Shown here piece after piece: positions 1-42,974 of a DNA stretch of 43,180 nt (the stretch's first letter is position 1; each line of letters opens with the position of its first letter). The translations under genes were made by a program, and so were the position numbers. Source of the DNA: Candidatus Avigastranaerophilus faecigallinarum (GTDB taxonomy: Bacteria; Cyanobacteriota; Vampirovibrionia; Gastranaerophilales; Gastranaerophilaceae); assembly GCA_018716565.1 (NCBI GenBank), contig DVJT01000106.1, positions 1 to 43,180 on the forward strand, read 5' to 3'. The notes under the pieces were generated by a model. It was given only the letters and a program-made list of their open reading frames with translations, was not told the DNA's origin and ran no database searches.

Positions 1-2
1 AT

Positions 3-293: not shown

Positions 294-297
294 AAAA

Positions 298-750: not shown

Positions 751-828
751 TTTACACCCTATATACTAATTTTCTACATGTAATAAAATACATAAAGGAA
801 AATGTTGCTAACTTTGTTAAGATTTTTA

Positions 829-1695
829 TCATTTATTAATAGAAAAATATATTTCTTTTAAACGTTTTTTGCTTATATGCGTATATAATTGCGTTGTTGA
901 AACATCACTATGACCTAATAATTCTTGAACAACCCTAAGATCAGCCCCATTTTCTAATAAATGCGTCGCGAAAGAATGTCTTATTGTATGTGGAGATATA
1001 TCTTTATTTATATTTTTACCAATTCCACGTATGAAAACATATACATCTTGTCTTGTTATTTTTTTTCCATTGTCTTTAATAAATAAATATTTTGTATTTA
1101 AATTAAATTTTTTTAATATATACTCGCGTTCTTTTAAATATTTCTTTATTGCAATACAAGCTTTATTACCAATAGGAACTATTCTTTCTTTTGAACCTTT
1201 ACCTAAACACCTTATATATTTTGCATTCAAATCAATATTATTGATTTGAATATCAGATAACTCTGAAACTCTTAAACCTGCAGCATATAGCAACTCTAAT
1301 ATTGCCTTTTCCAATATTGACATATTTCTATCTAGAAGCTCTGTAATTTCTTTCATTGATAAAACCTTCGGAAGTCTTTTAGGCAATTTGGGTTGTTCTA
1401 TTGATAAAGCGGGATTGTGTTTAATAATATCATTTATACTTAACCACTTAAAAAAACCTTTTATTGATGCAATTTCTCTAGTAATACTTCTTGGTGTATA
1501 TTTTTTATCATAAAGATTTTTTATATACATATTTATATGTAATCTTTGAATTTTATTATAATCATCAATCCCCTCCTTTTGAAGGAAATCAGATAAAGAA
1601 TAAAGATCACTCCTGTATGCAAATAGAGTATTTAAAGCTAATCCACACTCTACTTCCAAATATTCAATATACTGAGAAATATAATGAATCAACAT
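829..1695 (-). CDS. xerD: Tyrosine site-specific recombinase, XerD/XerC-like
   Basis: Catalytic C-terminus HTIRHSFATHLLENGADLRVVQELLGHSDVSTTQLYTH and N-terminal SAM-like domain (YIEYLEVECGLALNTLFAYRSDL). Confidence 0.85.
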   Translation of the reverse strand: MLIHYISQYIEYLEVECGLALNTLFAYRSDLYSLSDFLQKEGIDDYNKIQRLHINMYIKNLYDKKYTPRSITREIASIKGFFKWLSINDIIKHNPALSIEQPKLPKRLPKVLSMKEITELLDRNMSILEKAILELLYAAGLRVSELSDIQINNIDLNAKYIRCLGKGSKERIVPIGNKACIAIKKYLKEREYILKKFNLNTKYLFIKDNGKKITRQDVYVFIRGIGKNINKDISPHTIRHSFATHLLENGADLRVVQELLGHSDVSTTQLYTHISKKRLKEIYFSINK

Positions 1696-1730
1696 AAAAC
1701 GATTTTATCATTTATTTAGTAAAAAGTTAA

Positions 1731-3860: not shown

Positions 3861-3942
3861 TATAAAAAACCTTACTTATATATAATAATAAAAACAAATA
3901 AAAAAAATAATTGCGTTTTATTCTTTGTAAATTCTTTTTATT

Positions 3943-3977
3943 AAAAAACGATGCTTAGCCATTGCAAGCATCGTTTT
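3943..3977 (-). terminator. Intrinsic terminator downstream of the 247-aa gene
   Basis: Stem CGATGCTT / AAGCATCG (3949-3956 / 3966-3973, extendable by A:T pairs), followed on the minus strand by a T6 run. Confidence 0.6.
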
Positions 3978-3996
3978 AAATTTCTATAAAATGGAA

Positions 3997-4740
3997 TTAG
4001 CCGTCAGAGAATAAACCAAAAGTTCTATCGACATTGCTACTAATAACTTCTTTTACAGATTCATATTCTTTCATAATTGCTTCATGCTGAGTTTCCAACT
4101 GTTGTAACTCCATATCTAGCTGATTATCCTGCCTTGAAATTCTTGCTGTTTCACACTCATATTTACTTTGAGCTTCAGCATCATCAGAAGTATCAAGTAC
4201 ATATTCCATATCAGTTTCTGATTGTAACATGGTTAAAGATATACCTGTTTTTAAATCAGATGTATCCATTACAAACAACAATCCATTTATTATTGCATCT
4301 TGTAAAACATTTTTATTGGACAAATATGTTCCACCATCCAATATATCATATGTTGTTTCTGTATCATCACCAATAGTTGCTTTACCATCAGAATTAATAG
4401 TAAGAAGAGGTTTCCCGTCTAAATCTGTTGGAATAATCCACTCACCATTTTCATCTTTTTGAAGATAAATCTCCATATTAGCATTTGTTACTAAATATCC
4501 CATAGATGTCATATTATTATATGTAACATCCTCTTTTCTATATCCTTTATCCTCCGAAGGATCAGTAACTTTTATTTGCAACTTATAATTACTAATAGCT
4601 TCATTATACTCTGTTGCTGCTTTTTCACTTTCCCAAGCCAAAGTATTTTGTCGTTGAGAAATCATAACTTCACCAAGCTCTATATCACTTAGCCTAGAAG
4701 TCAACATTAAGAGTCTGCCTTGTGAAGAAGATAATCCCAT
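3997..4740 (-). CDS. Hypothetical coiled-coil protein (247 aa)
   Basis: Helical N-terminus (MGLSSSQGRLLMLTSRLSDIELGEV) and C-terminus (DNQLDMELQQLETQHEAIMKEYESVKE) flank a D/T/G-rich middle region. No family recognised. Confidence 0.6.
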   Translation of the reverse strand: MGLSSSQGRLLMLTSRLSDIELGEVMISQRQNTLAWESEKAATEYNEAISNYKLQIKVTDPSEDKGYRKEDVTYNNMTSMGYLVTNANMEIYLQKDENGEWIIPTDLDGKPLLTINSDGKATIGDDTETTYDILDGGTYLSNKNVLQDAIINGLLFVMDTSDLKTGISLTMLQSETDMEYVLDTSDDAEAQSKYECETARISRQDNQLDMELQQLETQHEAIMKEYESVKEVISSNVDRTFGLFSDG

Positions 4741-4834
4741 TTACTTTCTCCAATCTTTATTCTACATCCTTTATATCGGCATTTTATTATTTAAACTTAA
4801 ATAGGAGAAAAACTATATTGACATTTCTTAACAA

Positions 4835-6400
4835 TTAACGATTTTTAATATAATTTGAAATATCAATAACATTATTAACTTCCAGTGGGATATAATACTG
4901 GCAAGATGACCAAAGAAGTGTTTCAGGAAATTCAGCACAATTTGCATCTTCAACAGCTCTTTGATTACAATAACCTTTTACCATATTATTTGTACCATCA
5001 ATTTTTGGTGAAAAATAAGCGCAAGATTGACAAATTTTCATCCTAAAACCATGCTGTTCAAGAATATCCGAAATATTTTTAACGGCATCACACATTCTCA
5101 CATAACTTTGAACTGTTTCCTGCTTTTTATTCTTATATCTGAATACTGCCTTTTTAAAACCACCTTCAGATATCAAATCCATCGTACAGGAAAATACATT
5201 TCGTCCATTAGTTACATTTACCGGAACTGTTACTTTTTCAATTTCAACTTTTTGATTCCTTTTTGTTGACTTAAATATCTTCTTAAATATAGAAAGACTA
5301 AATATAACATCAGACAATGTATAAAATGGACATGCAATTAAGTAAAACAATGGTTTTATATACAGATTCGCTTTATAAATAGAGAAACCGAATGCAAGAG
5401 CTAAAACAACTGCCAAAAATACAGACCATGGAAAGTCAAACAAAAAATAATAATTGAAAGAATACGTTCCAACCACCACTAGCATTGCAATTAAAATGAT
5501 AGGATTTGGTTTAAAAAGAGAAAATAAAAATTCTGCAAATTTTAAATTCAATATTGATTTTAAACTTATGCAATGCGAAAATAATGACATTTTAAAACTG
5601 AAATCAGGTCTTCTCAATTCGTAATCTATGGAAGAAACATATGTTTTAATCTCAGGTACAAACTTAGGAGGGAAGTGTAAACTTGTTAACAAGAATGAAT
5701 ATTTTAATTCAGAATTAGCATCTTTAAAATCAATACACTGAACTTTTTCCAATACTTCATGCTTTATTGCTGTAATATCAGAGTCGATAGGAACAGCCAA
5801 ACCCAATCTTGAACGTCCTAGTTTCATAATATTTGAATTGTACTCATTAACATTTGACCAAACTTTTTCATAATAATCTGCATCTTCTAAAAAGATTTCT
5901 GTAGAACCAACAACAACATCATTAATTTGTAAAGCATCATTAATTTTGGCTAAAAAATCTGATTTAACAAGTCTGTTTGCATTTAAAAAGACATAGCCAT
6001 CAACTTTTTTAAAAGACATAAGATTTTCAAGAAGCCAAGAAATTGCTTTATCTCTTCCTAATGGAGAATCGTCTGTTAGTCTCCATAATTTAGCTCCACC
6101 TACAAATTCCAGTTTATTTGATGAATCATCAGTACAATTATCCAAAATTATATGTGTCTGATAATTTCCTTTTGGATAATCCTGTTTATTTAACTGTTCC
6201 AAAAGATTTACGATTGTTTTTTCATTATTATGAGAATAAATTATAACTATCAGATTTTTATATTCTCGCTTTAATTGAGAATCAGACTTTTTTGTAAAAT
6301 TAAAAAAGCTCGCTATAACTATCACAGTGAAATAGATTGTAAACACTGCTACGTATATGAAAAATATCAATAATAAAAAAATTGATATATTATTTAACAT
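4835..6400 (-). CDS. Membrane-embedded family-2 glycosyltransferase (processive synthase-like) with a Cys-rich C-terminal domain
   Basis: N-terminal TM helix, then a GT2 core (LIVIIYSHNNEKTIVNLLEQLNKQDYP...ILDNCTDDS), then several TM helices, then a ~145-aa soluble tail with CxxC and further Cys. RBS GAGGTGGG precedes the ATG. Confidence 0.7.
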   Translation of the reverse strand: MLNNISIFLLLIFFIYVAVFTIYFTVIVIASFFNFTKKSDSQLKREYKNLIVIIYSHNNEKTIVNLLEQLNKQDYPKGNYQTHIILDNCTDDSSNKLEFVGGAKLWRLTDDSPLGRDKAISWLLENLMSFKKVDGYVFLNANRLVKSDFLAKINDALQINDVVVGSTEIFLEDADYYEKVWSNVNEYNSNIMKLGRSRLGLAVPIDSDITAIKHEVLEKVQCIDFKDANSELKYSFLLTSLHFPPKFVPEIKTYVSSIDYELRRPDFSFKMSLFSHCISLKSILNLKFAEFLFSLFKPNPIILIAMLVVVGTYSFNYYFLFDFPWSVFLAVVLALAFGFSIYKANLYIKPLFYLIACPFYTLSDVIFSLSIFKKIFKSTKRNQKVEIEKVTVPVNVTNGRNVFSCTMDLISEGGFKKAVFRYKNKKQETVQSYVRMCDAVKNISDILEQHGFRMKICQSCAYFSPKIDGTNNMVKGYCNQRAVEDANCAEFPETLLWSSCQYYIPLEVNNVIDISNYIKNR

Positions 6401-6583
6401 GTCCCACCTCTTTACATGATTTTATAAAAAAAAGACTTTTTTTTCCAGTAAAGAACTAAAAATAAAATCAAGGCAATGTAAATTTTTATTAAAATAGGAA
6501 ACAAAAGTATAAACATTTTGTCAAAAGTGAATTATTATATTTGTAACAAATCCCCAAATCTCCTCCCAAGATTATTAAGTATT

Positions 6584-6606
6584 AGCTGCAGTGCAGCTTT
6601 TTTTTT
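6584..6606 (+). terminator. Orphan plus-strand intrinsic terminator upstream of the tRNA
   Basis: AGCTGC-agt-GCAGCT hairpin followed by T9. There is no annotated plus-strand gene upstream. Confidence 0.5.
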
Positions 6607-6671
6607 GTATACTAAATTGAAATTTTACTTGCTAATATAAATTTATGATGTAATATATATAATAATAGCCT

Positions 6672-6745
6672 TGTGCCTGTAGCTCAGCTGGATAGAGTGT
6701 TTGGCTACGAACCAAAAGGTCGGGGGTTCGAATCCCTCCAGGCAC
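6672..6745 (+). tRNA. tRNA-Arg (anticodon ACG)
   Basis: Cloverleaf folded by hand: acceptor GTGCCTG/CAGGCAC, D-arm GCTC-AGCTGGATA-GAGT, anticodon arm TTTGG-CTACGAA-CCAAA (anticodon ACG), variable loop AGGTC, T-arm GGGGG-TTCGAAT-CCCTC, discriminator G. No encoded CCA. Very similar to E. coli tRNA-Arg(ACG). Confidence 0.92.
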
Positions 6746-6811
6746 GTTTTAATAAAGATAAGGGTTTTGATATTTTTTGAAGCTCTTTTTTAATGTCAAA
6801 AAAAATGGTGT

Positions 6812-6832
6812 TTGTGCAACTTTTGTGCAACT
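6812..6832. repeat. Two direct copies of TTGTGCAACT spaced 11 bp apart (candidate integrase arm-type sites)
   Basis: TTGTGCAACT occurs at 6812-6821 and 6823-6832, between the tRNA and the int stop codon. The spacing is one helical turn. Confidence 0.4.
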
Positions 6833-8087
6833 AATTATTTTTTTTAGGTTTGCAAAATAAATCATCCAACTTAGTAGCTGCAATTTGATCTGCTTTTTTT
6901 ATAATATGTGAATATATGTCTGTTGTTGTTGAAACACTTGCATGACCCAATCTTTTACTTACTGTTACAGGATCGAGTCCTTCATATAATAAAATGCTTG
7001 CTTGAGAATGTCTAAATGCATGAGGATTAATATGAGGTAATTTTTTTAGTTTATCTTTTTTATTTAAAGTTTTATTTTTCTCTTCTATTAATTTATTATA
7101 TTTTTTTTCAAATTTTGAACAATAATCTGTTATTGAATCAGGATGCATTGGCATACCGTTTTCTTGAGTTAATAAATATCCTGTATCATTCCACTTGTTG
7201 CCATATTTTAATATATTCTTCTTATTTTCCATAACAAGCCTTTTTACAATTTTCATTATTCTTTCAGGAATAGATACAATACGAATAGATGTTTCTGTTT
7301 TTGGACTATCTTCATAAATTCCTTTATCTCTTGAATATAAAAGATTGTTTTTTATATTAATTCCGCAATTTTTAAAATCAATGTTTTTAATCTTTATTCC
7401 TGCTATTTCTCCCCTTCTACATCCAGTATAAATTAGTAAATTCATTACAACTTGCCATTTCAAGGGTTCATTGTCTAAATAACGAAGAATATTTTGTATA
7501 TCCTCAATCTCAATAAATTTGGCTTCCTTCTTTTTATTTGTAGGAGGAGTTGCCTTATCTGCTGCATTATACTGAACTAACATCTCTTTATCGGCTTGTT
7601 TTAAAATAGTGCGAATCAGGCGATGGTGTTCTAAAATCGTTTTGGAACTTAAAGCCTCTCCTGTTATCAAGTTTGATCCTTCTTGCCCTAGCATCGTATA
7701 AAATTCATTCAAATGTTGAGGTTTTAAATCAACAAGTTTTATATGTCCAATTGCAATATTTATTCTTTCAAGAAGACTTCTATAAAAAATCAATGTTTTA
7801 TGTTTAATTTTTCCATTTCTTTCTTTCAAATTAAGTACATATTCTGCATATTCTTTAAATGTTTGTTTATTTTCTATAATTTTTCCGTTTTGACAATCTT
7901 TTTCAAATAAAATTGCAAATTTTTGTACTTCTTTTTCACTTCTTTCTTCGCTCCAATTTTGTTTGGGTTTAAAAGATGTTGTATAGGGTTTCAAATTCTT
8001 TCCGTTTTCATCTTTTCCACGAAAAACTCTGATTGTAAAAGATGTAATCTGACCTTTTTTATTTTTTCGGGGATAAATATTTGCCAT
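6831..8087 (-). CDS. int: Phage tyrosine integrase
   Basis: 418 aa. C-terminal HAFRHSQASILLYEGLDPVTVSKRLGHASVSTTTDIYSH (tyrosine recombinase signature). Lies adjacent to the tRNA. Confidence 0.9.
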   Translation of the reverse strand: MANIYPRKNKKGQITSFTIRVFRGKDENGKNLKPYTTSFKPKQNWSEERSEKEVQKFAILFEKDCQNGKIIENKQTFKEYAEYVLNLKERNGKIKHKTLIFYRSLLERINIAIGHIKLVDLKPQHLNEFYTMLGQEGSNLITGEALSSKTILEHHRLIRTILKQADKEMLVQYNAADKATPPTNKKKEAKFIEIEDIQNILRYLDNEPLKWQVVMNLLIYTGCRRGEIAGIKIKNIDFKNCGINIKNNLLYSRDKGIYEDSPKTETSIRIVSIPERIMKIVKRLVMENKKNILKYGNKWNDTGYLLTQENGMPMHPDSITDYCSKFEKKYNKLIEEKNKTLNKKDKLKKLPHINPHAFRHSQASILLYEGLDPVTVSKRLGHASVSTTTDIYSHIIKKADQIAATKLDDLFCKPKKNN

Positions 8088-8754: not shown

Positions 8755-8994
8755 ATGGAAGAATTTACAAAAATAATAAAAAATCTATTTAGAGAAAAAA
8801 TAAACATAGTGATATTTTTATTAATTGCAATAATCGGATTAAATGCTTATCAAATTATTGATAATAAAATCAATTATACAAAAATAAGAAAAAGAATAGA
8901 TTTTAGATATTTTAATTTAACAAAATCAATGGAAGATATACACTTTATTGAAATTGATACAAAAACAGGTGAGAAAAAAACATCTAGGAATTAA
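8755..8994 (+). CDS. Small membrane protein (79 aa from the ATG at 8755)
   Basis: AAGGA RBS precedes the ATG at 8755. One TM helix (INIVIFLLIAIIGLNAY). The track ORF begins earlier at a GTG with no RBS. Confidence 0.45.
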   Translation: MEEFTKIIKNLFREKINIVIFLLIAIIGLNAYQIIDNKINYTKIRKRIDFRYFNLTKSMEDIHFIEIDTKTGEKKTSRN

Positions 8995-9538
8995 AATTTT
9001 TTGCTAATTTTTTTAAAATATTAATTTCTTCATTGCTCAAGGTTAGAACTTCTTCTTGACTTTGAGCATTTTTACATGTTGTTCCAAAAAGAAGCCAATC
9101 AATAGAAACATCAAAATTCGATTTTAATGCAATTAAATCATCTATAGATGGCATTCTTTTTCCAATGCCTAATTTCTCGATTTTACTTTCTGAAATTCCG
9201 GTTAATTTGGATAATTCAAGATCATTAAGATTATTTTCTTTTTGAAGTTGATTAAATCGTTTATGAAAACTATCCATACCTTTTAGAACATTTGTATTAT
9301 TGCACTTTTCAAGAGTATTTTCTCCAGAAGAAATGAACATATCTCCGTTATCTGTCAATAACCAATTAAGATTTACTTTTAATTTTTCACTTAATAATGT
9401 CAAAATTTCGGTGGGAAGTCCTCTTGTTTCATATTCATAGCCTCTATATGTCCGAACATTTATATTCAATTTTTCTGCAATTTCTTCTTGTGTATATCCC
9501 AATGTTACACGAATTTTTTTTAGGTTATCTCGTAACAT
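8984..9538 (-). CDS. CI-like repressor with two XRE-type HTH domains
   Basis: LRDNLKKIRVTLGYTQEEIAEKLNINVRTYRGYE and LNDLELSKLTGISESKIEKLGIGKRMPSIDDL are two Cro/C1 HTH repeats. The start was moved to MLRDNL (GGAAAGG RBS upstream). Confidence 0.8.
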   Translation of the reverse strand: MLRDNLKKIRVTLGYTQEEIAEKLNINVRTYRGYEYETRGLPTEILTLLSEKLKVNLNWLLTDNGDMFISSGENTLEKCNNTNVLKGMDSFHKRFNQLQKENNLNDLELSKLTGISESKIEKLGIGKRMPSIDDLIALKSNFDVSIDWLLFGTTCKNAQSQEEVLTLSNEEINILKKLAKNFNS

Positions 9539-9736
9539 ACAAAAGCCTTTCCACACTTTTGAAATATTTTTTTGACACAAAATGAATAAATTATTCTTGA
9601 CTTTTTACACAATATGTGTCAATATAATTTTCGTTAATTTATTTAATCACTTAATTAATTATTTAACACAAAAACACGAAAAGGACAAAGATTGCCCTCT
9701 ATATCGTGCTGATTGTGTTACAGAAAAGGAGTACAA
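9539..9736. promoter_or_regulatory. Divergent early promoter/operator region
   Basis: Perfect palindrome ACACAATATGTGT (9607-9619) is nested in TTGAC...GTCAA. Back-to-back -35-like hexamers TTGACT (+, 9597-9602) and TTGACA (-, 9617-9622). TATAAT at 9623-9628. Extra ACACAA half-sites at about 9575, 9666 and 9713 (the last inverted). Confidence 0.5.
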
Positions 9737-15258: not shown

Positions 15259-16146
15259 ATGTCTACAAAAATCGAATGGACAAATCAGACATGGAATCCT
15301 GTAGTCGGATGCACAAAATATTCAGAAGGTTGTATAAATTGTTATGCAGAAAAAATGCACAAAAGACTTTCTGCTATGGGACATAAAAAATATAAATTTC
15401 CTTTCAATAATGTATTATTTCATTACGATGAATTGAATAAACATTTTGGACAAAAAAGGAAAATGATTTTTGTTAATTCAATGTCAGATTTATTTCATCA
15501 AAGGATTAGCTTAGAACAAATTTCAAAAGTTCTTGAAGTATGCAAAAATAATCAACAACATATATTTCAAATACTTACAAAAAGACCTGAACGACTTTCC
15601 GCTTTTTCTTATCCCCCAAATGTTTGGCTTGGAGTTACAGTAGAACATCCAAAATACAAAAACCGCATTGAGTATCTTAAAAACACTAATGCGAAAATAA
15701 AATTTTTAAGCTGTGAACCTCTTTTAGCTGATTTAGGAGAGCTTGATTTGAGGGGCATTGATTGGGTTATTGCAGGTGGTGAATCCGGTTCTAAAGCAAG
15801 ACCCATGCATCCTGATTGGATTCGCAATATTCAAAAACAATGCCGGGAACAAAATATTCCGTTTTTCTTTAAACAATGGGGTGAGTGGGTAATAGCTAAG
15901 CAAAAGCCGCCGTTTAAAATAGAAAATCCGATTTACTCTAAACTATCGTCTAAAATTATGCTAAATAACGGAATAATAATTGACGGAATTTTTCCCAATG
16001 ACGTTAAAAAATGGGAAAAACAAACAGGTAGTTCAATAGATAATAAAAATGCCGTAATTATTTTAAAAGCAGGAAAAGCAAAATCAGGAGCATTATTGGA
16101 CGGAAAAGAATATAAAGAATTTCCTGTAATTATAGAAGCTGAATAA
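15259..16146 (+). CDS. Phage Gp37/Gp68 family protein (DUF5131, three-Cys motif)
   Basis: N-terminus MSTKIEWTNQTWNPVVGCTKYSEGCINCYAEKM is the hallmark of this family. GGESG...PMHPDWIR...FFFKQWG is also typical. Confidence 0.85.
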   Translation: MSTKIEWTNQTWNPVVGCTKYSEGCINCYAEKMHKRLSAMGHKKYKFPFNNVLFHYDELNKHFGQKRKMIFVNSMSDLFHQRISLEQISKVLEVCKNNQQHIFQILTKRPERLSAFSYPPNVWLGVTVEHPKYKNRIEYLKNTNAKIKFLSCEPLLADLGELDLRGIDWVIAGGESGSKARPMHPDWIRNIQKQCREQNIPFFFKQWGEWVIAKQKPPFKIENPIYSKLSSKIMLNNGIIIDGIFPNDVKKWEKQTGSSIDNKNAVIILKAGKAKSGALLDGKEYKEFPVIIEAE

Positions 16147-16162
16147 TTTAGAGGTTTAAGTT

Positions 16163-16678
16163 ATGAAAGAAGAAATATCAAAATATAATTTTGAACAAAA
16201 AAGAAGCGATTACTTGACCCCGCCTTGCGTGATTTCTAAAATATTTGATTTATTAAAAGAGTTGAATATTGATTGTGATAACATTTTTTCTTTAGATACA
16301 TGTTGCAGCAAGAATAATATTCCTGCCCGTTTTAGGTACTACGAAAAACAATTTGACGGGCTTTTAATGAATTGGTTTGGAATAAGCTATTGCAACCCTC
16401 CATATAAAGAATGTGATAAATGGGTAAAAAAAGCATATTCCGAGTTCAAAAAAGGTGTTATTTGTGTTCTTTTAATTCCGGCAAGAACAGAAACTGCTTA
16501 TTGGCATAAATATTTGTTAGAAGATGGAATGATTAACAAACGCAATATTTATATAAAATTTTTGCGTAAAGGTTTAAAGTTCTTAAATCCTGATGATGAT
16601 TCAGAAATGGGAGTTTTTAAAAACTCGCTTGCTATAGTGGTAATGAATGGTGAAAATGAGGTTAAATATGATAGATAA
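16163..16678 (+). CDS. Phage-type DNA N6-adenine methyltransferase (Dam-like, small)
   Basis: Catalytic motif YCNPPY. Size and layout match the phage N-6-adenine-methyltransferase family. Confidence 0.75.
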   Translation: MKEEISKYNFEQKRSDYLTPPCVISKIFDLLKELNIDCDNIFSLDTCCSKNNIPARFRYYEKQFDGLLMNWFGISYCNPPYKECDKWVKKAYSEFKKGVICVLLIPARTETAYWHKYLLEDGMINKRNIYIKFLRKGLKFLNPDDDSEMGVFKNSLAIVVMNGENEVKYDR

Positions 16679-17219
16679 TAAAATAATAATATGTGATTTA
16701 GACGGTTGTCTTATTGATAGTGCCTGGATATGGGAAGTAATAAAATTACAAAAATTTGAAAAAAATATTGTATTTGATTTTTTTAATCGAAATGCAAACG
16801 CTGAAGCTAATAATATTGATTTAGTTTTATATAAATATTTATGTTTTAAAGCCTCCGGCGGTTATAAAATACATTTTCTTACCGCAAGAAGCGAAGAAAT
16901 AGAAATTCAAACTATAAATTTTATCCAGGAAAAAACAGGTTTATTATTTGGTAAAGAATTTACTATAAGTTTCAGACCATTTAATGATTTTTCTTCTGCT
17001 GCTGAAAGCAAAAAGATAAGACTTGAGCAAATGATTGCAAACGGAAAAAATATTATTCTCGCTATTGATGATGATGAAGAAATTATTGATATGTATAAAA
17101 CAAAAGGAATTCCAACTCTGCAATGGAAAATAGGTTATATACCGGCTTGTGTTGCATTGGAATTTGGCGGTAATTTGAGTCTTTTAATAAATAAGAATGA
17201 ACCTGTTTCTCTAAATTAG
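16668..17219 (+). CDS. HAD-superfamily phosphatase-like protein
   Basis: Motif I IIICDLDGCLIDS and a distal LAIDDDEE acidic motif. The start was moved to the ATG at 16668 (GAGG RBS). Confidence 0.6.
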   Translation: MIDNKIIICDLDGCLIDSAWIWEVIKLQKFEKNIVFDFFNRNANAEANNIDLVLYKYLCFKASGGYKIHFLTARSEEIEIQTINFIQEKTGLLFGKEFTISFRPFNDFSSAAESKKIRLEQMIANGKNIILAIDDDEEIIDMYKTKGIPTLQWKIGYIPACVALEFGGNLSLLINKNEPVSLN

Positions 17220-17233
17220 ATGGCGGATAGTAC

Positions 17234-17536
17234 ATGGGGAAAGTAAAAAAAGAAGCCAAAGATGCAATTATTAAACTAATGCTTCAGGAAGTTTCAACTG
17301 AAGATATTGCAAAAAAACTTAATTATTCTGTAGGAACGATACGAAATGTTTTTGAAGAACTCAGGGAAGAATACGGGGTTTCTTCAAAGATGGGTATTAC
17401 TACTGCTTATTTGAGGTCCGAACTTGAAAAAGTGAACAACCAATTAAACAGGTTGTTTAAAATTATGGATAATTGCGATTTTGAGAAAAAAAACAGTTGT
17501 TTTAGTAAAAAATATAAAAGAAAACATAAAAAATGA
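17234..17536 (+). CDS. Small HTH regulator (sigma region-4 / LuxR-like)
   Basis: VSTEDIAKKLNYSVGTIRNVFEELREEYGV. Confidence 0.5.
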   Translation: MGKVKKEAKDAIIKLMLQEVSTEDIAKKLNYSVGTIRNVFEELREEYGVSSKMGITTAYLRSELEKVNNQLNRLFKIMDNCDFEKKNSCFSKKYKRKHKK

Positions 17537-18639
17537 ATATTGTTAATGAAGAAGATCTTTTGAAAAAAACAAGCGAAAATAATTTCGTACATTGTCAATT
17601 ATGCGGCAAAGAATTTTATACAAAAACTCCAAAAAAGGCTAAATACTGTCCTGAATGCTTGATTAAAAGCCGCAGAAAAGAGTTTATAAATATAATTTCA
17701 AATAAGGATTTTAAAATTCTTTATAAACAATTTTTTCCTTACATAAAAAAATGTACAAGAAATTATATATCTTCTGACTCAGACTTGTTTGATTTTGTGG
17801 TAGAACAATCACTTGTTAATATATGGATTAGATGGGTTGCTATGATTAATAATGGTATGACCGTCAATGAACTTCAAAAAATTACAAAAACAGAGTTGTT
17901 CTATTGCGTTAAATATAGTTATTATGCGGTTATAAGAGCAAGGGATTTACCTCCGACATTACATTGTCATAACAAAAAAATAGCCGAGGAAGAATTAAAT
18001 GTATTAAGATTAGATATGCCAAAGTCTTCGGATATCGATAGCCCGGATAATCTTATTGATTATATAGTCGATTCAAAACCACCAATAAGTAAAATATTAG
18101 ATTTTAAAAAAATATTAAATCAAATAATGGTTGAGAGTATTTTAGATTCAGATGTTAAAGCGGCTATTATAAGAACAGAATTAACTGATATAAATGTTAA
18201 AACATCTATATCTGAAAAAGAAAAGGTTAGTTTGATTAATAATCAATACAACTTGAAAATAGATAACTTAAAGCAGTTAAAATCAAAAGCTCAAAATGGA
18301 ATAAAAAAACTTTATAATGCTTACTCTCCGGAACTAAAAGAAATTTTAGAACTTTGCGATAATGATTTTAGATTGGACACTAACAGTAAAGAATTAAAAA
18401 AACATTATTTGTATAATCCAATAAAAAGATGCGTAGTATGTAACAAAGCATTTATCAGTAGAAATGATGCTCTTGTATGCAGCAGGGAATGTGCAAAAAA
18501 AAGAGCTGAACAAAACAAACTCAAATTACAGTATAGAAACAAATTAAATGAGCTTTTTAGCAAAGCATATAAATCTAATACGATGGAAGAATGCTCAATT
18601 TTTCTTTCCAAAATGGAAGAATTTATTAAAAAGTTATAG
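17533..18639 (+). CDS. 368-aa protein with N- and C-terminal zinc ribbons; candidate late-gene regulator
   Basis: CQLCGKEF...YCPEC at the N-terminus and CVVCNKAF...VCSREC at the C-terminus. It is the last gene before the early/late non-coding junction. The function is inferred from position only. Confidence 0.45.
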   Translation: MNIVNEEDLLKKTSENNFVHCQLCGKEFYTKTPKKAKYCPECLIKSRRKEFINIISNKDFKILYKQFFPYIKKCTRNYISSDSDLFDFVVEQSLVNIWIRWVAMINNGMTVNELQKITKTELFYCVKYSYYAVIRARDLPPTLHCHNKKIAEEELNVLRLDMPKSSDIDSPDNLIDYIVDSKPPISKILDFKKILNQIMVESILDSDVKAAIIRTELTDINVKTSISEKEKVSLINNQYNLKIDNLKQLKSKAQNGIKKLYNAYSPELKEILELCDNDFRLDTNSKELKKHYLYNPIKRCVVCNKAFISRNDALVCSRECAKKRAEQNKLKLQYRNKLNELFSKAYKSNTMEECSIFLSKMEEFIKKL

Positions 18640-18783
18640 GTGTTAAATTACACCATGGGGAAAAACGCAATGAGATTTGAATTTTAATGTGAAAAATATA
18701 CTAAAAGGAAGGAAGAAATAAATTTAAGAAAATTTGATTTAAAGGCTAAATAAATTAATGGTTTTAATGTATAAAAATTTGAT

Positions 18784-18818
18784 TAAAAAAAAGGTGTTAA
18801 ATAACACCTTTTTTTTTG
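18784..18818. terminator. Bidirectional intrinsic terminator
   Basis: A8 run, then AAGGTGTT-aaat-AACACCTT (18791-18810), then a T9 run. Confidence 0.7.
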
Positions 18819-18840
18819 TTCAAAAAATGTTAATGTGTAA

Positions 18841-18869
18841 ATGTTCGCAAGTTTCCTTAATTGGGAGGA
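18841..18869 (+). promoter_or_regulatory. Bipartite box ATGTTCGCAA-N9-ATTGGGAGGA (second copy at 42745-42770 with N6)
   Basis: Two exact 10-mers occur in the same order at two late-region intergenic sites. Confidence 0.45.
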
Positions 18870-18876
18870 GTTACTG

Positions 18877-19166
18877 AGTGAACCTAAGTAAAGCAATTTA
18901 CATAATCTAGTGTCGCAGCCTGCCGCCGGCTGTCTTGAAATTCCTTTTCGCTCCAAGCGTATCGCCTACGGAGCTTTGCTCTTGCCGGCTTTTGCTTGTC
19001 GCTTACCACGCTTCGCGAGTCCGGAATTTCGCTCCTCGCCGCCGTCTTACTGCTCACCTTTTCAAAGTGCCACTCTCAAAAATTCACTCACACCTTCGGC
19101 TTACCGTGAATTTTTGTTCGGACAACTTAAAATATGTAAATTGCCGCTTAGTCTTTAGTTTTCACT
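18877..19166. other. GC-rich non-coding island closed by an interrupted inverted repeat (candidate structured RNA, leader or cos region)
   Basis: AGTGAA/CTAAG/GCAATTTACATA (18877-18904) pairs with TATGTAAATTGC/CTTAG/TTCACT (19133-19166). Internal helices: 18937-18944 with 19023-19030, 19081-19087 with 19106-19112, and 18916-18920 with 18928-18932. No credible ORF. Confidence 0.55.
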
Positions 19167-19173
19167 TAAACTG

Positions 19174-19199
19174 GGAGTTCATTTTGAACTCCTTTCTTT
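19174..19199 (+). terminator. Hairpin plus U-rich tail immediately upstream of the first late-region gene
   Basis: GGAGTTC-atttt-GAACTCC followed by TTTCTTT. It ends 14 nt before the ATG at 19213. Confidence 0.5.
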
Positions 19200-19212
19200 C
19201 CGGGAGTTAGTT

Positions 19213-19689
19213 ATGAAATCCTTTATTGTTCTTGATTGCTGTGCTTATGAAGTTAAAACACATACTAAAACTTTTGAATATATTGACTGTTTCAAAACAA
19301 AAAGAAACAAATATTTTAGAAAAAAACTTTCAGATGGAAGACTTATAAAAAAAGAGTTATTACTCATGACAACATGCCCTGTCTGCAAACATTTAATTTT
19401 AAAATATTTATGGTATGCAAATCCTATGAGCCGTTTTCAAGATTGGGATGATGAAAAAATAATAAGAGGAGCAAAAGCAGATGAAATATTTTCTCGCCGA
19501 TGTGAAGATTATGAATCAATGGAACTTCCCAATCCTTTTAAACCTCAAAAAGAGCCTAAATTTACAAAGAAAATACCATTAATTTATTATAAAAATATTG
19601 ATGGTTATTCTCAAATTCCCCGTTATATTAATGAAGCAGATGATGCCGGATTAAAAGTTATATGTCCAGTCAAAACAATAAAATTTTAA
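19213..19689 (+). CDS. Hypothetical protein (158 aa) with a CxxC motif
   Basis: GGGAG RBS. TTCPVCKH motif. No family recognised. Confidence 0.5.
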   Translation: MKSFIVLDCCAYEVKTHTKTFEYIDCFKTKRNKYFRKKLSDGRLIKKELLLMTTCPVCKHLILKYLWYANPMSRFQDWDDEKIIRGAKADEIFSRRCEDYESMELPNPFKPQKEPKFTKKIPLIYYKNIDGYSQIPRYINEADDAGLKVICPVKTIKF

Positions 19690-20369
19690 TAAAAAACCTC
19701 TTAAACAAAATAACTTTGGGTGATTGTTTTGAAATAATGAAACAACTTCCTGATAAGTGCATAGACCTTGTATTAACAGATCCTCCATACGGGTCTGGGG
19801 GGGGGGGATTTTGGGAAACAAAGAAGAGAAGTCGTTTCGGGGGTTTGTTTGACAAATATGAGATAAAAAGAACAGGCGGAACCTGGAATGAAAAATACGG
19901 TAAAAAAATTCAACACTGGGATGTTGCTCCAACTAAAGAAGTTTTTGATGAAATTTTCAGAATATCTAAAAACCAAATTATTTGGGGTGGAAATTATTTT
20001 TCACTGCCGCCGACAAGATGTTTTCTTGTATGGGATAAATTAACTATTTCTGATAAGTTTTCTATGGCAATGTGTGAATATGCCTGGACAAGTTTTAACC
20101 AAAATGCAAAAAGATATGAAATAGCTCCTCAAGACAAATACAGATTTCATCCGACTCAGAAACCGTTAAAATTAATTGAATGGTGTGTTCAAAACTATTC
20201 TAATGAAAATGAATTAATATTGGATTGTTTCTCGGGAAGTGCGACAACGGCGGTAGCTTGCCATAATTTAAACAGGAACTTTATTTGTATAGAAAAAGAT
20301 CCTGAATATTATGCAAAAAGTGTTCAACGATTAAATGAAGTTAAAGCTCAATTGAAATTTCTGTTGTAG
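19662..20369 (+). CDS. DNA methyltransferase, beta-class N6A/N4C (motif IV DPPY N-terminal, motif I C-terminal); no cognate endonuclease recognised
   Basis: ITLGDCFEIMKQLPDKCIDLVLTDPPY ... HPTQKPLKLIEWCVQNYSNENELILDCFSGSATTAVACHNLNRNFICIEKDPEY. Confidence 0.85.
   Translation: MSSQNNKILIKNLLNKITLGDCFEIMKQLPDKCIDLVLTDPPYGSGGGGFWETKKRSRFGGLFDKYEIKRTGGTWNEKYGKKIQHWDVAPTKEVFDEIFRISKNQIIWGGNYFSLPPTRCFLVWDKLTISDKFSMAMCEYAWTSFNQNAKRYEIAPQDKYRFHPTQKPLKLIEWCVQNYSNENELILDCFSGSATTAVACHNLNRNFICIEKDPEYYAKSVQRLNEVKAQLKFLL
19797..19807 (+). repeat. G11 homopolymer inside the methyltransferase CDS
   Basis: Counted directly: ctGGGGGGGGGGGatt, encoding GSGGGGF right after DPPY. It is the only G or C run longer than 5 that I found in the window. 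Confidence 0.95.
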
Positions 20370-20427
20370 CAAGTCTAAAACTTGTCGTATTAAAGTGAAA
20401 ATTCAACAATTATAAGAAGAAAATCTA

Positions 20428-21222
20428 ATGTTCAATATTGATGGAAAAGATTTCAAACAATTTGAAGAAAACCTAAAAAATACACATAAATATGCTGTTC
20501 CTGACACTGTAAGAAAAACATTAACTACTCTTGCATATAAAGCTCATGCTGAATATAAGAAAAACGTATCAAAAAATCTTGTATTAAGAGGCGGTAAAAA
20601 TAATAATATTGTTACTAAATCGATCCATTGGGAAAAAGCCCAATATAAAGAAAAAAATATTGATAATATGTATTCTTTAGTCGGGCAGTTAAATACTTTC
20701 TATGGCAAGGAAACGGACCAATTAAGAAAACAAGAATTCGGAGAAACGCTGGTTGCTAAATCAAAACATATAACAAAAGCAACAAAATATACAAGGGGAG
20801 GAAGCTACAGAAAATTAGTTCCTAAAGATAAATTAATTGCAAAAACCAATGTAAAAAGAATAAAGGATCTTGTAAAATATCCTGCAACAGGAACAACAAT
20901 GCAATTTAAACAGGCTATTGCAGTGGCACACAGACAGCACAAGACAATAAATTTTCTTCCTGAAACTGAAACTTCAGGACATAAATTCGGAATATTTCAG
21001 TTTTGGGATTCCGGTACAAAATATGATAAAAACGGCAAACCGCATGCGAAAGGTAAAGCTGCAAAATTACTTTATTCTTTTAAAGACAAAACTCAAAAGT
21101 TAGAAGCAAAGCCAATGCTTAGTCTTGCATCACATAAAGTTGGCATACAAAGTAAAGAAATTTTTAAAAAAGAAGCCGAACGGAGAATTGCAAAAGAAAT
21201 GTCAAAAAAATTAAAGAAATAA
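20428..21222 (+). CDS. Hypothetical Lys-rich protein (264 aa), possibly virion-associated
   Basis: The N-terminal region faintly resembles HK97 gp10-type morphogenesis proteins (VPDTVRKTLTTLAYKAHAEYKKNV). Weak. Confidence 0.4.
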   Translation: MFNIDGKDFKQFEENLKNTHKYAVPDTVRKTLTTLAYKAHAEYKKNVSKNLVLRGGKNNNIVTKSIHWEKAQYKEKNIDNMYSLVGQLNTFYGKETDQLRKQEFGETLVAKSKHITKATKYTRGGSYRKLVPKDKLIAKTNVKRIKDLVKYPATGTTMQFKQAIAVAHRQHKTINFLPETETSGHKFGIFQFWDSGTKYDKNGKPHAKGKAAKLLYSFKDKTQKLEAKPMLSLASHKVGIQSKEIFKKEAERRIAKEMSKKLKK

Positions 21223-21223
21223 A

Positions 21224-21254
21224 AGAGTAAATATTTCATATAGGTATTTACTCT
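21224..21254 (+). other. 10-bp perfect hairpin between the MTase cassette and the small terminase gene
   Basis: AGAGTAAATA (21224-21233) pairs with TATTTACTCT (21245-21254). There is no U-tract, so terminator function is uncertain. Confidence 0.35.
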
Positions 21255-21273
21255 TTCAAAAAGAGTTGCCATT

Positions 21274-21828
21274 ATGATTTTATCAAGAAAAGAATTTCAA
21301 GAAAAATACAATTATAAGCATATTCAGGCTGTTCATAGATTAGTAAGAGAAGAAAAAATTGATATCAATGATAAGGGTATGATTGATACCAATACAGCAA
21401 AAAATAAAGATTTTTGCATAAAGCGGGAAAAGAAAATAAACAAACTGAAAAAAACAAAAAAAACGGAAACTCAGAAAATTAAAAATTTAAAGTCTGAAGA
21501 ACAATTGGGTTTGGATATTGATATTTTAAATGCAAAAGTTGAAAGAACTTTAAAACAAAACGAACTGTTAGGTATAAAAATTGCAAAAGAAAAAGGAGAA
21601 CTTATTGAATCTGATTTATTAAACAAAATTATAGTTAATATTTTTGATTCATTTTTTCAGGCACTTTGCAATTACCCTAATATTAAAGCTGATGAAATTA
21701 TAGATTTAATTAAGTCAAATCAAAATCCAAAAGAAGAATTAATTAAAAATCTTACTGATGATATCATCTCCATAATAAAAGATGCTCTTGAAACCGCAAG
21801 AAAAATAACAAAGAAATATATAAAATAA
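21274..21828 (+). CDS. Terminase small subunit, Nu1-like
   Basis: The N-terminal HTH (LSRKEFQEKYNYKHIQAVHRLVREEKIDINDKGMID) parallels lambda Nu1 (NKKQLADIFGASIRTIQNWQEQGMPV). A coiled-coil tail follows. The gene is directly upstream of TerL with an ATAATG overlap. Confidence 0.55.
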   Translation: MILSRKEFQEKYNYKHIQAVHRLVREEKIDINDKGMIDTNTAKNKDFCIKREKKINKLKKTKKTETQKIKNLKSEEQLGLDIDILNAKVERTLKQNELLGIKIAKEKGELIESDLLNKIIVNIFDSFFQALCNYPNIKADEIIDLIKSNQNPKEELIKNLTDDIISIIKDALETARKITKKYIK

Positions 21829-23774
21829 TGAATATATTAACAAAAGAAGTACAAATTGATAAGATTTTTGATAATATATATAAAATTCTTCCTCGGGATG
21901 TTTTGATAAGCTGTTCTCAATGGGCAGAAGAAAACAGATTTATGAATTCCAAAATTACCGGAAGAAGCGGCAAGTTCAGTTTTAAGAATGCCCCGTATTG
22001 CAGAGAAATTGTTGATTGTTTTTCAAAGAACAATAACATACAAGAAATTGCAATAATGAAGGGTGTTCAACTGGGATTAACAACATCTGTTATAGAAAAT
22101 GTTATAGGATATTCAATTAATTTGGATCCTTGTCCGATGATGTTTGTTTTTCCAAATGAAAAGGAAGCTGAAAAATATAAAAAATTAAAAATTGATAATT
22201 TAATAGATAATTCTCATTTAAGAAGTAAAATTACAGCAGAAACTGAGGACAGAAACACAAGACGAACGGGTGATACTGCTTTAATGATTGAGTTTCAAGG
22301 AGGTTTTTTAACTTTTGCTTCTGCAAGAAAAGGAGTACAATTACGTTCAACTCCAATTAAGAAATTATTTCTTGATGAGTTAGATGCTTATCCCGATAAG
22401 ATAAAAGATGAGGGGAACCCTATTGATATAGCTTCAAAAAGAACAGACAGCTATATTAAATTCGGAAGAAAGATTTGTTATAATTCAACCCCTCTTTTAG
22501 CACATAAATCAAAAATACATGAACAATACAAAAAGGGAGATTGCAGAAAGTTCTTTGTTCCTTGTCCTTGTTGCGGTCAAAAACAAGAACTTGTTTTCTA
22601 TAAATCTGATGGAGGCGAATATTCTGATGAAAAGGCAATAATAAAAGGGCAGACAAAAAGCAAACCTTACGGGCTTTTATTTGATGTAAATGCATGTAAA
22701 AACGGAGATTATTCTTCTGTCCGATACAGATGTAAACATTGCGGCGGAGAATTTAAAGATTATCATAAATACGCTATAGAACAAGACGGAGAATGGATAC
22801 CAACTCAAAAATCCATAATCCCTTATTTCCGTTCTTATCATATATCTGCTCTGTATTCGTTAACGAAGCCCTGGGAAAATATAGTATTGGAATTTATAAA
22901 TGCAGGCAATAATCCTGATAAATTACAATCTTTTTATAACTTAAATCTTGGCTTGCCGTTTGAAGACAGAACAGGAGGGCTTGAATATCAAAAAGTTCAC
23001 CGATTAAAAGATGAAGATATGGAAAATAATATTCTGCCAAAGGAAGCATTATTTCTAACTTGTGCTGCCGATGTACAGCGTGACAGAATTGAATGTGAAA
23101 TAAAAGCCTGGGGCGATCGTTACCGGTGCTGGGGTATAGATCACAGAATTTTTAAAGGTAATGTTTACGATATTTACGACCCTTGCTGGAATAGTTTTTT
23201 AAAAATTAAAGATGAAGTTTTTAAATATGCAGATAAAATAAAACAAAACGGAATGCAAGTTGAGTTAATGGCAGTCGATTCCGGCGACGGAGAATTAAGA
23301 GATGTAGTTTATAATTTTTGTGATACATTCGGCGACGGATTAATAATGCCGTTAAAAGGTTTTGTTTCCACAACAAGAACAAGAGAAAAATTTAAAATAG
23401 TTCCTATTAACGAATTTGAAACTATTTCTCTTATAGAAATATATACGGATTTGTACAAAAATTCGCTTTCTCGTTATCTTTCACAGGAAGAAAGAATTGA
23501 TGATGATTATCCTGACGGATGGTTTACTTTTGCAAAAGGATATTCTGATGAATATTTCAGACAGCTTACAACAGAACAAAAAGTAAAGGTACAAACCCCG
23601 GGCGGATTAACTGCTATCAAATGGGTTCAACATGGCAGAAATGAAGCCTTTGACTTAAATGTTTACAATATGGCACTTGCCGACATTGTTATTTATCAAC
23701 AATCGGTTTTGTATTTAGGACTTGACAGTTCTAATGCAAGAGCTGTTTTTGAATTAATGAAAAAGAGGAAATAA
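21828..23774 (+). CDS. Terminase large subunit, lambda GpA family
   Basis: 648 aa. Walker B-like LFLDELDAYP, the CPCCGQ...CKHCGG zinc motif characteristic of GpA, and a C-terminal nuclease region. Confidence 0.88.
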   Translation: MNILTKEVQIDKIFDNIYKILPRDVLISCSQWAEENRFMNSKITGRSGKFSFKNAPYCREIVDCFSKNNNIQEIAIMKGVQLGLTTSVIENVIGYSINLDPCPMMFVFPNEKEAEKYKKLKIDNLIDNSHLRSKITAETEDRNTRRTGDTALMIEFQGGFLTFASARKGVQLRSTPIKKLFLDELDAYPDKIKDEGNPIDIASKRTDSYIKFGRKICYNSTPLLAHKSKIHEQYKKGDCRKFFVPCPCCGQKQELVFYKSDGGEYSDEKAIIKGQTKSKPYGLLFDVNACKNGDYSSVRYRCKHCGGEFKDYHKYAIEQDGEWIPTQKSIIPYFRSYHISALYSLTKPWENIVLEFINAGNNPDKLQSFYNLNLGLPFEDRTGGLEYQKVHRLKDEDMENNILPKEALFLTCAADVQRDRIECEIKAWGDRYRCWGIDHRIFKGNVYDIYDPCWNSFLKIKDEVFKYADKIKQNGMQVELMAVDSGDGELRDVVYNFCDTFGDGLIMPLKGFVSTTRTREKFKIVPINEFETISLIEIYTDLYKNSLSRYLSQEERIDDDYPDGWFTFAKGYSDEYFRQLTTEQKVKVQTPGGLTAIKWVQHGRNEAFDLNVYNMALADIVIYQQSVLYLGLDSSNARAVFELMKKRK

Positions 23775-40207: not shown

Positions 40208-40216
40208 GAGATAAAT

Positions 40217-41065: not shown

Positions 41066-41077
41066 AAAGGAAATACC

Positions 41078-41785: not shown

Positions 41786-41793
41786 GAGAAATT

Positions 41794-42186: not shown

Positions 42187-42195
42187 GAGAATATT

Positions 42196-42708: not shown

Positions 42709-42744
42709 TAAAAATATTCTTGTATGGGAGAGTTAGTTGCGGAG

Positions 42745-42770
42745 ATGTTCGCAATAATTCATTGGGAGGA
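42745..42770 (+). promoter_or_regulatory. Second copy of the bipartite box ATGTTCGCAA-N6-ATTGGGAGGA
   Basis: Both 10-mers are exact matches to 18841-18850 and 18860-18869. Preceded by GGGAGAGTTAGTT (42726-42738), which resembles GGGAGTTAGTT at 19202-19212. Confidence 0.45.
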
Positions 42771-42970: not shown

Positions 42971-42974
42971 TTAT

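Follow-up and report, generated by a model that had tools for sequence, protein, structure and literature searches.

A G11 tract in an orphan methylase gene of a temperate gut phage as a candidate ON/OFF switch, with repeats recurring at the same place in its relatives

Can a run of eleven guanines inside a phage DNA methyltransferase gene work as a mutational switch, or is it an accident of codon choice, gene decay, or sequencing? The question is raised by a 43,180-nucleotide (nt) stretch of DNA from Candidatus Avigastranaerophilus faecigallinarum (contig DVJT01000106.1, positions 1 to 43,180, hereafter the window), which holds a prophage whose solitary methylase gene, at 19662..20369 on the + strand, contains an uninterrupted G11 tract. 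Several lines of evidence, namely the rarity of the tract, its position in the enzyme, its length differences among copies of the same prophage, and the recurrence of comparable repeats in related methylases, lead us to regard the tract as probably a genuine mutational ON/OFF switch, that is, a slipped-strand contingency locus in an orphan phage methylase. What such a switch would do for the phage is a separate and more tentative matter, taken up after the evidence for the switch itself.

The tract and the enzyme it interrupts

The features of the gene that bear on the question are the following (all on the + strand).

19662 to 20369, + strand: gene of a predicted orphan beta-class N6/N4 amino-DNA-methyltransferase, 235 amino acids (aa), ON in the window (Pfam, PHROGs, PADLOC, PDB neighbours)
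19757 to 19852, + strand: short alternative-frame open reading frame (ORF) with a GTG start, crossing the tract (ORF list; N-termini of proteins P0123 and P0124)
19779 to 19790, + strand: motif IV codons D-P-P-Y, residues 40-43, 6 nt upstream of the tract
19788 to 19922, + strand: residues 43-87, a Gly-rich, length-variable, insert of low model confidence that separates motif IV from the conserved W86-D87 core (AlphaFold2 and alignment)
19797 to 19807, + strand: G11 homopolymer, the proposed slipped-strand switch (census, shuffles, length variation among prophage copies)
20223 to 20249, + strand: motif I (S-adenosylmethionine (SAM) binding), D-C-F-S-G-S-A-T-T, residues 188-196 (homologue alignment; D188, G192, and S193 invariant)

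The tract consists of 11 unbroken G, with ...GATCCTCCATACGGGTCT before it and ATTTTGGG after it, so that the read-out is GATCCTCCATACGGGTCT GGGGGGGGGGG ATTTTGGG. It begins at nt 136 of the coding sequence, 18 nt past the first base of the DPPY codons, and occupies codons 46-49, where it encodes Gly46-Gly49 (GGG GGG GGG GG-A) in the protein context TDPPY-G-S-GGGG-F. A preliminary description of this DNA had placed a G11 run here, within the coding sequence and right after motif IV, had noted no other G or C run of more than 5, and had read the gene as in frame; the sequence read-out, a homopolymer census of the whole window (30.2% GC), and the 235-aa ORF that spans the tract agree with it on all three counts. 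The gene therefore carries within its coding region, at codons 46-49, the kind of hypermutable-length repeat that characterizes contingency loci.

The tract is far from what base composition or codon usage would produce. Under a first-order Markov model, about 8e-4 G runs of 11 or more are expected in the window. The G8 sub-pattern occurs at the tract alone, as against 0.09 expected per dinucleotide-preserving shuffle, and its observed count was reached in 0 of 100 shuffles. GGG is the rarest glycine codon of the prophage (9.1% of 547 Gly codons), three consecutive GGG codons would arise by chance with a probability of about 8e-4 at this usage, and the other two glycine triplets in the prophage proteins are written with mixed codons. 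Chance and codon usage are ruled out as the origin of G11 by the Markov expectation, the shuffles, and the rarity of GGG.

The interrupted gene matches Pfam family PF01555 (N6_N4_Mtase) with 91.5 bits (cut-off 26.7; E=9.8e-26), PHROG 67 'DNA methyltransferase' (2.9e-55), and the PADLOC MTase_II/oMTase models for Type II or orphan methylases, and its nearest sequence neighbours in the PDB are DpnA, M.MboIIA, and CcrM (E=7e-18 to 1e-15). The motifs stand in the permuted order IV...I, with DPPY N-terminal and motif I C-terminal. Because motif IV lies near the N-terminus and motif I near the C-terminus, and because DpnA, M.MboIIA, and CcrM are its nearest solved relatives, the protein is, judged from its sequence, a beta-class amino-methyltransferase. 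We take DPPY, as opposed to SPPY, to point to N6-adenine as the target, and the ON enzyme probably methylates DNA, at N6-adenine given the DPPY motif. Codon 194 (20241-20243) encodes Ala (FSGSATT) where at least 90% of aligned relatives have Gly (FSGSGTT); this Ala194 is common to all near-identical copies, and a distant relative (P0074) also has GSA.

The tract sits at the start of the insert of residues 43-87. AlphaFold2 gives this insert a predicted local distance difference test score (pLDDT) below 50 while modelling the core confidently (mean pLDDT 70, predicted template modelling score 0.70), and the same columns are variable and gapped in the homologue alignment, so in-frame length changes there should be tolerated. 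Frame-shifting changes are another matter. The products computed for the window gene are of full length, 234-236 aa, with G8, G11, or G14, and stop at 62-63 aa with G9 or G12 and at 67-68 aa with G10 or G13; all of the frameshifted products end far upstream of motif I (residues 188-196), as had been claimed for a gain or loss of one G. As computed, then, a change in repeat number abolishes or restores the full-length product, as in a contingency locus. An OFF allele would be a true null, because in a permuted enzyme a frameshift after DPPY leaves the catalytic loop without motifs V-VIII, the SAM pocket, and the region that recognizes the target. The tract thus appears to be placed where a repeat costs the protein nothing and a frameshift disables it maximally.

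Variation among prophage copies and across the methylase family

Close copies of the prophage were gathered through a protein look-up with the methylase and through the identical upstream 158-aa ORF; they come from at least four studies and assemblers, and every one is the consensus of a short-read metagenome assembly. The sequence that immediately precedes the tract (AACAGATCCTCCRTACGGGTC), scanned for as an exact pattern in JGI metagenome contigs and IMG/VR, gave no hit. Read after ...TACGGGTC, the copies show the following states.

In frame: T+G11 (the window, and an assembly that matches it at every base over 4.3 kb) and G12 (a single sample)
Out of frame: G10 (a single sample), G11 (three samples), and G13 (two samples)
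Frame not readable: one scaffold with an N gap right behind the run, and one contig that ends within it

The nine resolved assemblies span G10-G13 or T+G11, and ON and OFF alleles are thus both natural. The haplotype other than that of the window has a synonymous TCT-to-TCG change in the serine codon, which adds one G to the run and keeps Ser-Gly4. Among copies with 95.5-100% identity to the window, the coding sequence 19213-21828 shows no indel other than the tract. Three of the copies, each from a different sample, have 0 mismatches over 6,612, 4,329, and 4,330 aligned nt, yet they carry G11, G12, and G13, and the 21 A/T runs of 7-9 nt in the matching 6.7-kb stretch of the window do not differ among them. 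The tract either mutates far faster than every other site or is the single site that short reads miscall. The comparison with homologous prophages that the preliminary description had proposed therefore yields a tract length that is not invariant (G10-G13, T+G11), and its reading of the locus as phase-variable is supported by the presence of ON and OFF alleles, as given by short-read consensus, among identical or near-identical sequences.

The length states have also left their mark on protein databases. The 90%-identity protein cluster of the methylase has five members: the annotated 217-aa gene call of the window, one protein of 235 aa, two of 203 aa, and one of 174 aa. The 203-aa members (P0123 and P0124) begin MHRPCINRSS(I/V)RVGGGGFWETKK and are read in the alternative frame up to the tract and in the normal frame beyond it: in alleles one base shorter, the alternative-frame ORF fuses to the C-terminal frame of the methylase and is called as a 203-aa chimera without DPPY. 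The 174-aa member starts downstream of the tract. The C-terminal parts of the OFF alleles are identical to the ON protein.

Some assemblies are disturbed at the tract. An N10 scaffold gap directly follows G12 in copy L095 (about 2058-2110), copy L097 ends within the G run, and the contig end of copy L096 has error-like A substitutions just downstream of G13. Breaks of this kind are expected from heterogeneity among reads and equally from poor sequencing of polyG.

The family of the methylase is large (at least 7,948 database clusters at E <=1e-10), and after DPPYG most of the aligned homologues have a Gly-rich linker of variable length. We sampled 80 loci from species-representative genomes and 80 from IMG/VR, which gave 137 genes when pooled and de-duplicated. 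In each gene, DPPY and the conserved HPTQKP were located, simple repeats between them were recorded, and it was checked whether the two motifs share a frame; genes with a G/C run of at least 7 or a dinucleotide repeat of at least 5 units were counted as repeat carriers. Carriers make up 59 of the 137 homologues, and 34 of these 59 (58%) are out of frame, as against 5 of 78 non-carriers (6%; Fisher p=2.7e-11). The repeats are concentrated near the catalytic motif: within the 162 nt that start at DPPY, the density of G/C runs of at least 7 is 24-fold (genomes) and 42-fold (IMG/VR) that of the other ~400 kb of these loci, and 40 of 71 repeats lie no more than 60 nt from DPPY. The ON fraction of carriers, 42%, is indistinguishable from the 1/3 expected if length drifts freely. 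A change of a single repeat unit restores full length in 32 of 39 out-of-frame homologues, so their one lesion lies at the repeat, and they are not decaying pseudogenes.

The kind of repeat varies by lineage, with G7-G10, C12, (AG)5-17, (CA)8-10, and A8 found at offsets that range from 12 to about 40 nt. Outside the 90% cluster, the nearest relative (P0002, 74% identity) has the linker GGT GGT GGA and no repeat, and a relative of 71% identity has TAT-G10 at a different offset, out of frame in two independent assemblies. Since repeat type and offset differ between lineages and P0002 is repeat-free, the sequences indicate that repeats arose repeatedly and independently, and the recurrence of one design with different repeat types argues that mutability at this site is selected rather than accidental. 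The preliminary description had held that a non-repetitive Gly linker of mixed codons in homologues would refute its reading; such linkers do occur in some relatives, P0002 among them, but many others have repeats of their own and are often out of frame.

Six of the sampled loci (L032, L099, L100, L103, L114, and L127) have two G runs, one after DPPY and a second ~60-170 nt downstream near a conserved RFGG motif; the window has only G5 (19839-19843) at the place of the second run. Two tracts in one gene would give more complex switching.

Prophage setting and possible roles

What such a switch might do depends on when the gene is expressed, for which its surroundings offer clues. The features around the methylase are as follows.

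829 to 1695, - strand: XerD, in the host flank
4835 to 6400, - strand: weak, sub-threshold match to a GT2 glycosyltransferase model, in the host flank
6672 to 6747, + strand: tRNA-Arg(ACG), the left prophage junction
6831 to 8087, - strand: tyrosine integrase, adjoining tRNA-Arg(ACG)
8984 to 9580, strand not given: cI-like repressor, with replication and regulatory genes and an HNH protein elsewhere in the element
16163 to 16678, + strand: Dam-like methyltransferase (PF05869) with no repeat tract (profile matches and homopolymer census)
About 18785 to 18817, both directions: bidirectional intrinsic terminator-like hairpin, A8-GGTGTTAAATAACACC-T9, closing the preceding gene block
19213 to 19689, + strand: ORF158, 158 aa, without a match to any Pfam, PHROGs, or PADLOC family; its end shares 28 nt with the start of the methylase gene, in the same operon
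20428 to 21222: ORF264, 264 aa, between the methylase and the terminase small subunit gene
21274 to 23774, + strand: terminase small subunit (TerS, 184 aa) and large subunit (TerL, 648 aa, GpA type) (PHROG 57 for TerS; GpA_ATPase/GpA_nuclease annotation of the identical gene in related contigs; tblastn)

The element is an integrated temperate phage, because it combines a tRNA-Arg junction, a tyrosine integrase, and a cI-like repressor with replication, packaging, and structural genes. A repeat of the tRNA 3' end that would mark attR was not found elsewhere in the 43,180-nt window, and the right end of the prophage accordingly lies beyond 43180. Phage GenBank records hold no close relative: DNA matches there are limited to short methylase motifs, and TerL is at most 35% identical. 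A scan of genome contigs returned methylase relatives from many phyla at up to 71% identity, none of them in the same prophage.

The hairpin is followed by a ~400-nt non-coding leader and then by the block ORF158 - methylase - ORF264 - TerS - TerL, with structural genes, including a Baseplate_J-family protein, downstream of TerL; the methylase thus heads the packaging or late block. A promoter scan near this block gave 6 sites, with 7.9 expected and none above chance. Shine-Dalgarno-like motifs lie upstream of 30 of 43 genes, a hint, and no more, that the host probably does not resemble Bacteroidota. No restriction endonuclease model matched the two genes upstream (17533-18639 and 19213-19689) or the two downstream (20428-21222 and 21274-21828) in Pfam, PHROGs, or PADLOC, which bears out the earlier statement that no cognate endonuclease is recognizable next to the gene, although such enzymes are hard to detect by sequence. 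Apart from a weak HNH-like match in the 368-aa protein encoded at 17533-18639, the methylase therefore appears to lack the adjoining cognate endonuclease of a restriction-modification (R-M) system. With the repeat-free Dam-like gene upstream, the phage appears to have one constant and one switchable methylase.

We propose that the phage gains from this arrangement by bet-hedging. Polymerase slippage during replication would add or remove G at the hypermutable G11. A change of one or two G after DPPY would cut off the catalytic loop and leave a null product of 62-68 aa (OFF), whereas a change of three G would add or remove one Gly in a disordered, length-tolerant linker and leave the gene ON, so that the gene could toggle stochastically between ON and OFF without further damage. 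Slipped-strand mispairing is the presumed cause of the length changes, and switching by this route would be reversible. Since it follows a terminator and opens the terS/terL block, the gene is probably expressed in lytic growth, and each burst or lineage would then release a mix of methylated and unmethylated phage genomes. Such a mix would hedge between hosts with R-M systems, which the methyl mark blocks, and hosts with modification-dependent (Type IV-like) nucleases, which attack the mark. The proposal draws on the fact that methylation shields DNA from R-M yet exposes it to modification-dependent nucleases, for which the T2 agt gene, discussed below, provides a precedent. We put it forward tentatively, at somewhat under even odds.

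The switch could instead act mainly in the lysogen, as a prophage-borne phasevarion that alters host methylome and expression or as a source of variable protection of host DNA. The element is indeed integrated, as its integrase, cI-like repressor, and tRNA-Arg junction show; Type I and III phase-variable methylases that control regulons are well documented (PMC5909438, PMC7383803); and PamA is a prophage methylase that alters host traits, as cited in PMC13076061. However, the gene shares a block with terS and terL that is preceded by an intrinsic terminator and a leader of 400 nt, which is a lytic-cycle position, and the promoter scan gave no signal above chance (6 sites as against 7.9 expected). 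The ON fraction of carriers is what neutrality predicts and gives no sign of selection in the lysogenic state, and prophage orphan methylases with simple sequence repeats in Bibersteinia are silent in their native host (PMC4996451). The gene order (terminator, then ORF158, methyltransferase, terS, and terL) suggests lytic-cycle expression instead of a phasevarion, and we consider a role mainly in the lysogen unlikely.

The tract might also be a neutral by-product, in which a glycine linker happens to use GGG, the OFF copies are decaying prophage genes, and mutability has no function. A family-wide Gly-rich linker does let G runs arise without cost to the protein, many of the repeat-bearing relatives come from GC-rich genomes, and the ON fraction cannot be told from neutral drift. 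But GGG makes up 9% of Gly codons in a phage of 30% GC, where three in a row have the chance of about 8e-4 given above, and other lineages have, in the same region, repeats that do not encode glycine ((AG)n, (CA)n, C12, and A8). Broken copies are otherwise intact, with a single lesion at the repeat (32/39), the OFF alleles retain C-terminal parts identical to the ON protein, and runs are enriched 24-42-fold over the flanks of the same loci. This makes a functionless origin quite unlikely.

A further explanation is that the true tract length is fixed and in frame, and that G10-G13 are homopolymer errors of short-read sequencing or assembly. In its favour, coverage is low for several contigs (cov 3.1-5.4, as their names give it), errors are evident at one contig end near the tract (L096), and two assemblies fail at the tract itself, a scaffold by an N gap and a contig by ending there. 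Against this, the length differences are seen in assemblies from at least four studies and assemblers, while the 21 A/T runs of 7-9 nt and all other bases are identical between the compared copies, and contig breaks at the tract are also what heterogeneous reads would yield. Across the family, 58% of carriers, including genes with G7-G8 or (AG)n/(CA)n repeats, are out of frame, as against 6% of non-carriers, which is far above the error rate of consensus sequences. Short reads are reliable for dinucleotide repeats and for runs of G7-G8, and the family pattern is therefore not a sequencing artefact. Error may account for some individual length calls but not for that pattern, and as the whole explanation it is very unlikely.

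Programmed ribosomal frameshifting or transcriptional slippage might express the out-of-frame alleles, with the tract tuning dose, and these alleles are common and otherwise intact and long homopolymers can cause RNA-polymerase slippage; yet such slippage is best documented for A/T runs, natural alleles are off by -2, -1, and +1 nt, which one programmed shift cannot all correct, no stimulatory structure was noticed, though no search for one was made, and either process would add to DNA-level variation and not replace it, so we reject programmed frameshifting as the main explanation and give the idea hardly any weight.

Against a slipped-strand switch that serves phage bet-hedging, several observations must be set. 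Expression with the late or packaging block is deduced from gene order, and in the 71% relative the methylase gene lies in an early recombination module. An ON fraction near 1/3 also fits a gene under no selection in the lysogen. With the Ala in motif I, even the ON allele may not be active. Finally, some copies have only ~3-5x coverage according to their contig names, and since G11-G13 are hard to call, individual lengths could be wrong.

A broader version of the bet-hedging idea may apply to the family. Orphan methylases of gut temperate phages (in Clostridia, Bacteroidales, Spirochaetes, Gastranaerophilales, and others) may repeatedly, and independently, have acquired a repeat that shifts the frame (polyG, polyC, (AG)n, or (CA)n) at one homologous place, the disordered linker after motif IV, as a conserved epigenetic bet-hedging device by which both methylated and unmethylated genomes are kept; in lysogens it may add prophage-driven heterogeneity to the methylome. 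We hold this generalization possible, with some doubt. If it is true, temperate phages of gut commensals commonly switch DNA methylation stochastically, by means of one methylase family and at a fixed structural position, and the locus is a concrete case of phage bet-hedging between R-M and modification-dependent defences. Many 'broken' prophage methylase genes in the annotation of genomes and metagenome-assembled genomes (MAGs) may then be OFF rather than dead, and switching methylases could confound methylation-based linking of hosts and phages and the binning of MAGs. Further switches may be found by a simple sequence rule, namely to look in PF01555 genes for a repeat that follows DPPY by no more than about 60 nt.

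Other observations concern the rest of the window. The host flank (1-8087) also holds two large proteins without a family match. The Dam-like methylase lies in a cluster of DNA-modification type at 15259-17219, together with a DUF5131 (Gp37/Gp68) protein and a HAD/PNKP-type phosphatase; the DUF5131 protein matches the PADLOC candidate defence components PDC-M30B/M41B (E about 1e-95). The 368-aa protein has several CxxC pairs besides its weak HNH-like PHROG match, differs between copies by an in-frame 3-nt indel at ~18459, and is strongly divergent in copy L004. In the 570-nt non-coding region at 18640-19212, the GC-richer ~250 nt after the hairpin are polymorphic among near-identical copies (deletions of 102 nt and 225 nt and a 1-nt change in an A run), and a second hairpin at 19173-19193 lies just ahead of the ORF at 19213. 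The predicted RNA fold of 18880-19212 (+ strand) has z=-4.5 relative to shuffles, and Rfam holds no family that matches this structured leader, which may be a late-operon leader, an antitermination RNA, or a small RNA. The 235-aa product of 41078-41785 contains the N-terminal domain of major tropism determinants (Mtd_N; E=8e-13), a hallmark of the targets of diversity-generating retroelements. No template or variable repeat of such a retroelement was found within 40000-43180, and any reverse transcriptase or repeat would lie past the end of the contig.

Relation to known switching systems

Phase-variable methylases are textbook matter for the Type I and III systems of a few pathogens, while phage contingency loci have only recently been shown experimentally, with few examples named. 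In the classical case, a DNA adenine methyltransferase gene has a simple sequence repeat within its coding region; slipped-strand mispairing there changes the reading frame, so that methylation is heritably and reversibly ON or OFF, and in Campylobacter the repeat is typically polyG (PMC4889913, PMC5909438, PMC7383803). The present locus resembles the phasevarions built on Type III mod, Type I hsdM/hsdS, and the Type IIG gene cj0031 of C. jejuni in that an intragenic repeat shifts the frame of a methylase. Those genes, however, are chromosomal R-M components of host-adapted pathogens, with described roles in regulons or defence, whereas ours encodes a small orphan PF01555 enzyme with no nuclease partner detected, belongs to a temperate phage from animal-gut metagenomes, and has its repeat after motif IV. 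In recent reviews, phase-variable methylases come under Type I and III R-M systems, and the orphan and phage enzymes are discussed apart from them.

Repeat-based switching in phages has precedents of its own. PolyG tracts occur in receptor-binding genes of Campylobacter Fletchervirus phages (Sorensen 2021, as reported in a citing paper), and T2 and T4 have simple sequence repeats of A, including one in agt (Gomez, Barrick and Waters, bioRxiv 10.1101/2025.10.21.683753). In T2, the agt repeat was shown experimentally to switch a DNA-modification enzyme and so to trade escape from TgvAB against escape from McrBC (bioRxiv 10.1101/2025.10.21.683753); a hypermutable homopolymer, mixed progeny, and a trade-off between defences against modified and unmodified DNA are the very logic proposed here. 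The Fletchervirus and T-even loci differ in belonging to virulent phages and in affecting receptor-binding proteins or a glucosyltransferase with A9 runs. Here the phage is temperate, the gene encodes a methyltransferase, the tract is G11, the repeat recurs at one homologous position across many host phyla, and the function is putative.

Closest in kind are methylase genes of phages or prophages with an intragenic simple sequence repeat, as in the present case: the M.Btr192IV and M.Btr189ORF5700P genes of Bibersteinia trehalosi prophages, with (CAAG)12 (PMC4996451), and a methylase gene of Bordetella phage BPP-1, with a polyG tract (Liu 2004, as given in a secondary citation). The Bibersteinia enzymes belong to a different lineage, the promiscuous Hia5-like methylases, in Pasteurellaceae, and both cases are single observations, neither of them with length polymorphism or a family-wide pattern reported. 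A full-text literature search of incomplete coverage returned no paper that describes a phage methylase family in which repeats cluster behind motif IV, or a gene of this kind whose tract is polymorphic. Ordinary orphan methylases of phages (Dam-like, Hia5/M.EcoGII-like, and PamA) are, like this one, solitary in the phage genome and generally credited with shielding phage DNA from restriction or changing the lysogen, but they are repeat-free and constitutively intact, whereas the present gene and about 40% of its sampled relatives have a frame-shifting repeat. As a single locus, the G11 tract belongs to a well-known kind; what appears to be new is the family-wide recurrence of such repeats at a fixed structural position in the orphan methylases of temperate phages.

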